A stretch of 64,000 nt of DNA. It comes from Escherichia coli. Lineage in GTDB: Bacteria > Pseudomonadota > Gammaproteobacteria > Enterobacterales > Enterobacteriaceae. The notes beneath the pieces were generated by a model. The model was not told where the DNA came from, searched no databases, and was given only the letters and a program-made list of their open reading frames with translations. Location: NCBI RefSeq assembly GCF_044647545.1, contig NZ_CP172818.1. One strand, written 5' to 3'. Position 1 is the stretch's first letter, and every line of letters begins with the position of its first letter. Positions 43,380 to 43,575 of the stretch are shown one piece after another. A program made the position numbers and the translations under genes.

Positions 43380-43575
43380 AAATATTCATTGTTTATCAAT
43401 GTGATGAGTTTGATTGTGAGTAAAAAAATAGCATCTGACTTTCAATATTGGTGATCCATAAAACAATATTGAAAATTTCTTTTTGCTACGCCATGTTTTC
43501 AATATTGGTGAGGAGCTTAACAATATTGAAAGTTGGATTTATCTGCGTGTGACATTTTCAATATTGGTGATTAAA
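43380..43575. promoter_or_regulatory. cai/fix divergent control region with iterated TTCAATATTGGTGA motifs
   Basis: three direct copies of ttcaatattggtga (43441, 43498, 43557) alternating with two inverted caatattgaaa copies, plus tgtgatgagtttgattgtgag-type CRP/FNR-like half-sites, between divergent caiT and fixA. Confidence 0.6.

Follow-up and report, generated by a model that had tools for sequence, protein, structure and literature searches.

A partnerless fifth CaiF-type half-site accompanies the known CaiF/CRP operator of the cai-fix divergon

The array of short repeats located between caiT and fixA is real, strongly non-random, and conserved, yet it is essentially the known CaiF/CRP operator of the cai-fix divergon. 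The published CaiF sites account for four of its five boxes, and the extended form of the repeat very probably results from CRP-like cores nested in them. The additions presented here, which are a modest refinement, are a partnerless box within the predicted fix core promoter and a variation, from zero to three, in the number of sites upstream of it. Across the divergons of different species, this lone box is the best-conserved element of the array. As a whole, the region is probably best explained as a CaiF/CRP operator with a candidate CaiF half-site embedded in the promoter, exactly one array period (59 bp) downstream of the proximal CaiF site.

The analyzed DNA, called here the window, is a 64-kb stretch of an Escherichia coli genome. 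The caiT/fixA intergenic region comprises 472 bp, with the caiT ATG at 43189 (minus strand) and the fixA ATG at 43662 (plus strand). The K-12 annotation confirms the genes flanking the array, and caiT and fixA on either side agree with the earlier note on this DNA, in which the repeats were placed in the cai/fix divergent control region. The genes considered are:

41675 to 43189, minus strand: caiT, the first gene of caiTABCDE
43662 to 44432, plus strand: fixA, the first gene of fixABCX
35526 to 35921, plus strand: caiF, encoding the activator that recognizes the motif (131 aa, CaiF_GrlA family)

Five copies of the 11-mer TTTCAATATTG are present without a mismatch (43440+, 43464-, 43497+, 43521-, and 43556+), against a chance expectation of about 0.03 exact copies (2 x 64000 / 4^11), and no further exact copy was found on either strand of the 64-kb window. 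The 14-mer TTCAATATTGGTGA is exact at all three positions given for it previously (43441, 43498, and 43557). Of the two inverted copies described along with it, one was correctly placed at 43464, while the other, given as about 43522, begins at 43521; similarly, the proposed periodicity of about 57 bp holds for the first start-to-start interval of the 14-mer, the second being 59 bp. A classical tandem repeat was considered and rejected, since Tandem Repeats Finder gave no rows at a score of at least 30 and the linkers are unlike one another; the likeness between repeat units beyond the boxes is limited to one weak stretch (76% over 29 nt). The empty Tandem Repeats Finder output indicates that the array consists of short boxes split by diverged linkers and not of head-to-tail units. 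A structured RNA was rejected as well, with Rfam giving a single meaningless snoRNA match (E = 0.35). The one "terminator-like" call in the region (43328-43345) is a palindromic CRP box with a T-run, not a terminator.

Strain FDAARGOS_497 has the interval covered by the earlier note (43380-43575) with 100% identity, and 5,379 of 5,426 complete E. coli genomes contain 80% or more of it. Over the 169-bp array segment, 5,388 of 5,390 E. coli genomes reach at least 95% identity, and all five boxes are unchanged in K-12 and in three divergent E. coli strains. The conservation of the copies between close relatives, on which their significance had been made to depend, was found for every copy. In E. 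coli SFE8 (L005, NZ_CP051219.1, locus 849-1448), the match to the window stops 248 bp into the intergenic region, before the array, and an IS26 transposase gene is located 56 bp beyond the end of the match, at the expected position of fixA; judging from this arrangement, SFE8 appears to have lost the array beside its cai promoter.

The binding of CaiF to two inverted-repeat sites, F1 and F2, and hence to four boxes, has been published; as later articles quote the original work, each site consists of two inverted 11-bp half-sites separated by a 13-bp gap (Buchet et al., 1999, via PMC12083890 and PMC3680233). The corresponding features in the window are:

43440 to 43474, no assigned strand: the CaiF site distal to fix, TTTCAATATTG-N13-CAATATTGAAA, a perfect inverted repeat with 11-nt arms that are 100% complementary
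43497 to 43531, no assigned strand: the CaiF site proximal to fix, TTTCAATATTG-N13-CAATATTGAAA, a perfect inverted repeat

The published arrangement TTTCAATATTG-N13-CAATATTGAAA is present at these two positions only. Because the match to the definition, as quoted, is exact, copies 1 and 2 and copies 3 and 4 are almost certainly F1 and F2, in one order or the other, and the motif is the CaiF box by the same quoted definition. The earlier note had compared the array with "two CaiF half-sites usually described," but the secondary accounts of Buchet et al. speak of two sites and four half-sites. What remains of its claim that the array is more elaborate than described is one extra copy, for four copies and their regular alternation are F1 and F2 themselves. 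Both full sites lie between caiT and fixA in a genome with its own caiF gene, and in most of the 42 species with a full inverted-repeat site the proximal one is found at -165/-141 from the fixA ATG. The CaiF protein was assigned to PF07180 (CaiF_GrlA), for which it scores 28.5 bits (cut-off 25), and GrlA (4KT5) is the nearest relative with a solved structure. The literature search found no genome-wide CaiF binding data. A 2024 preprint describes an isrB sRNA reporter that is repressed in a CaiF-dependent manner through a predicted site, which hints at CaiF targets beyond cai-fix (PMC11230228).

The CRP-related sequences that have to be considered together with the CaiF sites are:

43450 to 43465, no assigned strand: CRP-like core GGTGATCCATAAAACA in the distal CaiF site, 7/10 to TGTGA-N6-TCACA, centre 43457.5
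43507 to 43522, no assigned strand: CRP-like core GGTGAGGAGCTTAACA in the proximal CaiF site, 8/10, centre 43514.5
43329 to 43344, no assigned strand: perfect CRP box TGTGATGTTAGTCACA of the cai promoter, 10/10

Both nested cores have the form GGTGA-N6-wAACA and are concentric with the CaiF inverted repeats, with their centres 57 bp apart; their scores of 7/10 and 8/10 include two to three positions dictated by the CaiF half-sites. At the proximal site a CRP-core score of 7-8/10 is retained in 37 of 39 species, and the region holds eight CRP-core matches of at least 7/10, compared with 1.9 in shuffles. The GGTGA tail is present on the left CaiF half-sites, and the right ones are without it. 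As the left half of the CRP-like core, this tail accounts for the greater length of the direct copies, and the 14-mer is very probably a composite of a CaiF half-site and the left half of a CRP core. RegulonDB v8.0 describes at fixAp a pair of activating CRP sites like those of acs P2, with the proximal one at -69.5 (PMC3531196). When this position is combined with the core centre at 43514.5, the fix start is placed at 43584 and the distal core at -126.5. The positions -41.5, -69.5, and -126.5, the last for CRP site 3, are reportedly those of the abstract by Buchet et al. from 1998. Given the start at 43584, the centres of the nested cores fall at the CRP positions -69.5, listed in RegulonDB, and -126.5, the reported one. 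The perfect CRP box at 43329-43344 is presumably at -41.5 of the inferred cai start 43295, a start 289 bp away from that of fix; the TGTGA/TCACA halves of the box are kept in K-12, and the central N6 differs. On the other side of the array, at 43596-43622, the presumed 5' leader of fixA contains a conserved stretch, GCGTGATATCTGTAATTAACACC, with a 7/10 CRP-core match (TGTAATTAACACCACT), which K-12 and the Escherichia/Citrobacter/Salmonella clade as a whole have kept.

Between the cai CRP box and the CaiF array, a sharply bounded hypervariable block was found (43317-43415). It differs from K-12 at about 37 positions in about 100 bp, by substitutions and not indels, while the flanks (8 kb) differ by 0-6% per 100-bp window, mostly 0-2%. 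The allele of the block present in the window is at least 95% identical in 641 of 5,391 E. coli genomes, with 4,736 genomes at 60-80% identity, and a part of it (ATCAATGTGATGA) is common to E. albertii; an imported allele, balanced polymorphism, and unconstrained DNA are candidate causes. The upstream half-sites of the tgtgatgagtttgattgtgag type, which the earlier note considered CRP/FNR boxes, are indeed present at 43400-43421 (CRP 7/10, FNR 8/10); however, they are absent from K-12 and lie within the hypervariable block, and the perfect CRP box, at 43329-43344, is outside the interval 43380-43575. The FNR-core match TTGAT-N4-ATCAA (8/10 at 43410-43423) also belongs to the allele of the window only and has no K-12 counterpart. 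The FNR control of the divergon, which had been taken as known, is not supported by FNR ChIP-seq work, where caiF is assigned as the FNR target instead and neither caiT nor fixA has a listed FNR peak. A paper on a production strain does cite predicted FNR and ArcA sites for the cai promoter.

The fifth copy of the array and the elements of the predicted fix promoter that surround it are:

43556 to 43571, plus strand: fifth, partnerless copy TTTCAATATTGGTGAT, a CaiF half-site with a GGTGAT tail, filling the spacer of the predicted fix promoter
43549 to 43554, plus strand: -35-like hexamer GTGACA of the predicted fix promoter
43572 to 43577, plus strand: -10-like hexamer TAAAGT, in keeping with transcription starting at 43584
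43576 to 43584, plus strand: conserved block GTTTTATTT (downstream block GGTTTTATTT), 1.70 bits/bp

The place of an inverted partner, 13 bp downstream of the fifth copy, is occupied by TATTTCCAAAT (43580-43590), with 4/11 matches, and no minus-strand copy is paired with it. A hidden right half was considered and rejected: with 4/11 positions matching in E. coli, and in some genera 5/8 of the core, it is indistinguishable from AT-rich background. The sequence GTGACA-17-TAAAGT, with its spacer at 43555-43571, is the sole sigma70-like site on the fix strand. TAAAGT ends exactly 7 nt before the inferred start 43584, relative to which the fifth copy spans -28 to -13. In K-12 coordinates, the stretch 43556-43584 corresponds to 42297-42325. 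The promoter scan is weak alone (2 sites found against 2.6 expected in shuffles), and since it is not significant, the promoter assignment rests on the arithmetic of CRP positions and the RegulonDB value of -69.5. The register of the -10 element is also debatable. In the -10 weight-matrix scan, GTGACA (offset -7) and TAAAGT (offset +16) are confined to the Escherichia/Citrobacter/Salmonella clade, and the hexamer at offset +21 (TTTTAT; TATTAT in deep-branching genera) is the only -10-like position common to all three species groups. In the window, this alternative TTTTAT/TATTAT hexamer is at 43577-43582, inside the block GTTTTATTT. If TTTTAT is the -10, then the fifth copy would overlap the -35, with its 5' end TTTTCA situated 16 bp upstream of the -10. 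Under either register, as predicted from the sequence, the fifth copy is within the fix core promoter. No mention of it was found in searchable literature text; the 14-mer TTCAATATTGGTGA is absent from the literature searched, and the 11-mers appear in the CaiF context only in a 2025 biosensor paper.

To compare species, cai-fix loci were gathered by the CaiT protein, which makes the sampling independent of the motif. Among the 80 loci obtained, 69 have a divergent fixA (69 species), and their composition is as follows:

Two full sites and one lone box: 24 species (Escherichia, Citrobacter, Salmonella, Pseudocitrobacter, Phytobacter, Intestinirhabdus)
Three full sites and one lone box: 8 species (Proteus; period 59, 59, 59)
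One full site and one lone box: 7 species (Yokenella, Pluralibacter, Trabulsiella, Atlantibacter, two other Enterobacteriaceae isolates)
Degenerate full sites: 4 species (Providencia)
No full site and one lone box: 9 species (Hafnia, Edwardsiella, Serratia sp. H1w, Leminorella, Limnobaculum)
No full site and two lone boxes, 27 bp apart: 2 species (Budvicia)
One full site and no lone box: 1 species (Entomohabitans)
No full site and no lone box: 14 species (Shewanella, Ferrimonas)

The number of upstream full CaiF sites varies from zero to three by lineage, and the lone box, i.e., the fifth copy, is present in 54 of the 55 motif-bearing species. In almost all Enterobacteriaceae and Morganellaceae, about 106 bp separate it from the fixA ATG, and it is 59 bp away from the proximal site in 34 of 39 species, with 60 bp in four and 61 bp in one; the spacing from site to site, unlike that of the lone box, drifts between 55 and 59 bp. 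GTGA directly follows the 11-mer in 60 of 61 copies of the lone box. The information content, calculated for 43 species anchored on the lone box, was:

Lone-box 11-mer: 1.80 bits/bp
GTGAy tail of the lone box: 1.76 bits/bp
Proximal CaiF site: 1.53 bits/bp in the left half, 1.32 bits/bp in the right half
Gap inside the proximal CaiF site: 0.90 bits/bp
Linker before the lone box: 0.62 bits/bp
DNA further downstream of the lone box: 0.76 bits/bp

Hafnia, with the lone box only, encodes a CaiF orthologue in the 10-kb flank (50% identity, E = 2e-48), and no second copy of the box was found there in 21 kb. In Budvicia, the boxes are at -339/-312 (L052, Budvicia aquatica) and -307/-280 (L085) from the fixA ATG, with the lone composite box doubled in tandem at a 27-bp period (TTTCAATATTGGTGATGAAGGTATTGT and TTTCAATATTGGTGATAGAGGTATTAT); this doubling is unlike the multiplication in Escherichia and Proteus, where the inverted-repeat units measure 57-59 bp. 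In Leminorella, Limnobaculum, Edwardsiella, Serratia H1w, and Hafnia (L025, L048, L049, L051, L053-L057), a second strongly conserved block, GAATCATGGTATTTCTATTG, is situated 38-58 nt downstream of the box and resembles the box's own tail GATCTAGGTATTATTTTG, with a period of about 26-27 bp. The distance of the box to fixA is 264-349 bp in these genera, which points to a long leader or a further promoter. An exact inverted half-site CAATATTGAAA was also observed in Leminorella and Limnobaculum at -35 (L025) or -36 (L048/L055) from the fixA ATG, just upstream of the fixA ribosome-binding site and about 235 bp from the forward box. Entomohabitans teleogrylli (L041), alone among the motif-bearing species, has no lone box; at about -168 from its fixA ATG it keeps GTTCA, GGTGA, and TTTTATTT, but a GC-rich sequence (GTTCAGCGACGTCGGGTGAGTTTTTATTT) has taken the place of the AATATT core.

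How might such an array work? CaiF binding to the two inverted-repeat sites and co-activation by CRP are documented. In the mechanism proposed here, the CaiF half-sites would bracket each CRP core, sharing 1-2 bp with it, so that a CaiF-CRP-CaiF sandwich could be formed at -69.5 and at -126.5. These upstream sandwiches would supply affinity, cAMP dependence, and cooperativity, and their number (0-3) might be a lineage-specific setting of gain. A CaiF protomer on the fifth copy might, in turn, make contact with RNA polymerase at the fix core promoter or remodel it, in the way proposed for the paralogue GrlA at the LEE1 P1 spacer. That the lone box is a functional CaiF contact has, in our estimation, an even chance of being correct, this candidate role being suggested by its conservation and by precedent in the protein family. 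A more far-reaching version of this proposal is offered tentatively and with some doubt. It assumes that the lone box, TTCAATATTGGTGAy-N4-GGTwTTATTT, may be the ancestral and essential CaiF element, bound by a single protomer inside the core promoter or at its edge, as for GrlA, and that the F1/F2 sandwiches may be lineage boosters added upstream in 0-3 copies, with the phase fixed at 59 bp. According to the 1998 abstract of Buchet et al., cai transcription reportedly needs a 50-bp segment that extends over the fix start and was believed to carry the CaiF signal. The ancestral-element proposal, if true, would explain this reported need of the fix-start segment for the activation of cai, 289 bp away. 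The reported 50-bp requirement could equally reflect the loss of divergent fix transcription and of its supercoiling, lowering cai expression.

There are also data that speak against a promoter-embedded CaiF contact. Entomohabitans has lost the core of the fifth copy but kept the flanks, and the -10 assignment is ambiguous between TAAAGT and the conserved TTTTAT. A lone half-site may be a poor target for a dimeric CaiF, and the conservation of the fifth copy could come partly from core-promoter function rather than from CaiF binding. The available descriptions, secondary to the footprinting work, name only F1 and F2 as bound by CaiF, so that a footprint on the fifth copy is either absent or unreported in them. 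If we consider the latter point together with the position of the fifth copy, exactly one period after the proximal site, then the copy might be a relic of a duplicated 57-59-bp unit that lost its right half on becoming the fix core promoter and is now promoter DNA only, without CaiF binding. The weak partial matches to a right half, which amount to 4/11 in E. coli and, for sequences of the Yokenella type, to 5/8 of the core, and the weak likeness of two units beyond the boxes (76% over 29 nt) are in line with this idea. Nevertheless, we regard it as unlikely: promoter spacers normally vary freely, yet an exact half-site is kept across genera whose CaiF proteins are only about 50% identical, and it is better conserved than the footprinted half-sites of the proximal site. 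Tandem Repeats Finder detected no tandem homology, and the deep-branching genera have no copy but the fifth one, which speaks for an ancestral element and against a leftover.

The CRP-like character of the array must be weighed as well. The repeats of the 14-mer could be mainly CRP-related, in which case the fifth copy would mark a third, weak CRP site, either TGTGACATTTTCAATA (centre 43555.5) or GGTGATTAAAGTTTTA (centre 43573.5). The former scores 7/10 and is kept in K-12, and both the excess of CRP-core matches over shuffles and the GTGA that follows the 11-mer in nearly every fifth copy are compatible with such a site. But RegulonDB gives a pair and not a triple for fixAp (PMC3531196), the right halves are poor (CAATA and TTTTA), and the centres, at -28.5 or -10.5, are non-activating CRP positions. 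Moreover, the TGTGA of TGTGACA is limited to the Escherichia/Citrobacter/Salmonella clade, whereas the CaiF box is universal. A third CRP site is therefore considered very unlikely. It is highly improbable that another protein uses the palindromic, AT-rich core CAATATTG, for instance in H-NS nucleation or as an anaerobic regulator of the ArcA/FNR type, with the phased array organizing a repressive nucleoprotein filament rather than activation. In favour of this reading, H-NS is reported as a repressor of carnitine metabolism, and the cores combine AT-richness with regular spacing. Against it, every box is an exact match to the CaiF consensus, the accounts quoted above include published binding of CaiF to four boxes, the FNR ChIP-seq work has no caiT/fixA peak, and the FNR-core matches are weak or allele-specific.

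The reading in which CaiF contacts the fifth copy is a hypothesis useful for work on CaiF/GrlA-type activators and for carnitine biosensors built on the fix promoter. If the fifth box is functional, it would suggest a family-wide mechanism with the activator inside the promoter, and it would show which bases to keep when the fix promoter is minimized or re-engineered.

Compared with known systems, the array is closest to F1 and F2 as quoted from Buchet et al. (1999), with which it shares the locus, the half-site, and the 13-bp gap (43440-43474 and 43497-43531 in the window). The fifth copy differs from the sites described there in that the half-site with its GGTGAT tail has no inverted partner and is situated in the core promoter, not upstream of it. 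The arrangement is also similar to the tandem class I CRP sites of fixAp and acs P2 (PMC3531196), with two cores 57 bp apart and the proximal one at -69.5; here, however, CaiF halves bracket each core, sharing 1-2 bp with it, and the cores are imperfect. Another comparison is with GrlA, the second founding member of PF07180 beside CaiF, proposed, in the form in which the original study is quoted, to be a MerR-like activator of LEE1 P1 acting via an 18-bp non-dyad spacer (Islam et al., 2011, via PMC4730234 and PMC3130263). The sequence of LEE1 P1, TTGACA-TTTAATGATAATGTATTT-TACACA, was confirmed upstream of ler in O157:H7. Both systems have an activator of the CaiF_GrlA family and, going by those quotations, a proposed target in the -35/-10 interval with no dyad symmetry. 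The spacer is 18 bp in LEE1 P1 and 17 bp in fix, where the CaiF contact is only proposed. A likeness between the two spacer sequences was examined and found not convincing, although both start with TTT and contain AAT..AT. GrlA is not known to have upstream inverted-repeat sites or a CRP partner. The MerR-family activators are alike in having the activator site inside the promoter spacer, but their targets combine 19-20-bp spacers with a dyad-symmetric operator, neither of which holds at fix, and the 17-bp fix spacer is not overlong, unlike the non-optimal 18-20 bp of MerR/GrlA-type promoters, where a shortened spacer bypasses the activator. Under the GTGACA/TAAAGT reading, and only under it, the fifth copy would be placed inside the -35/-10 spacer, as are the targets of GrlA- and MerR-like activators.
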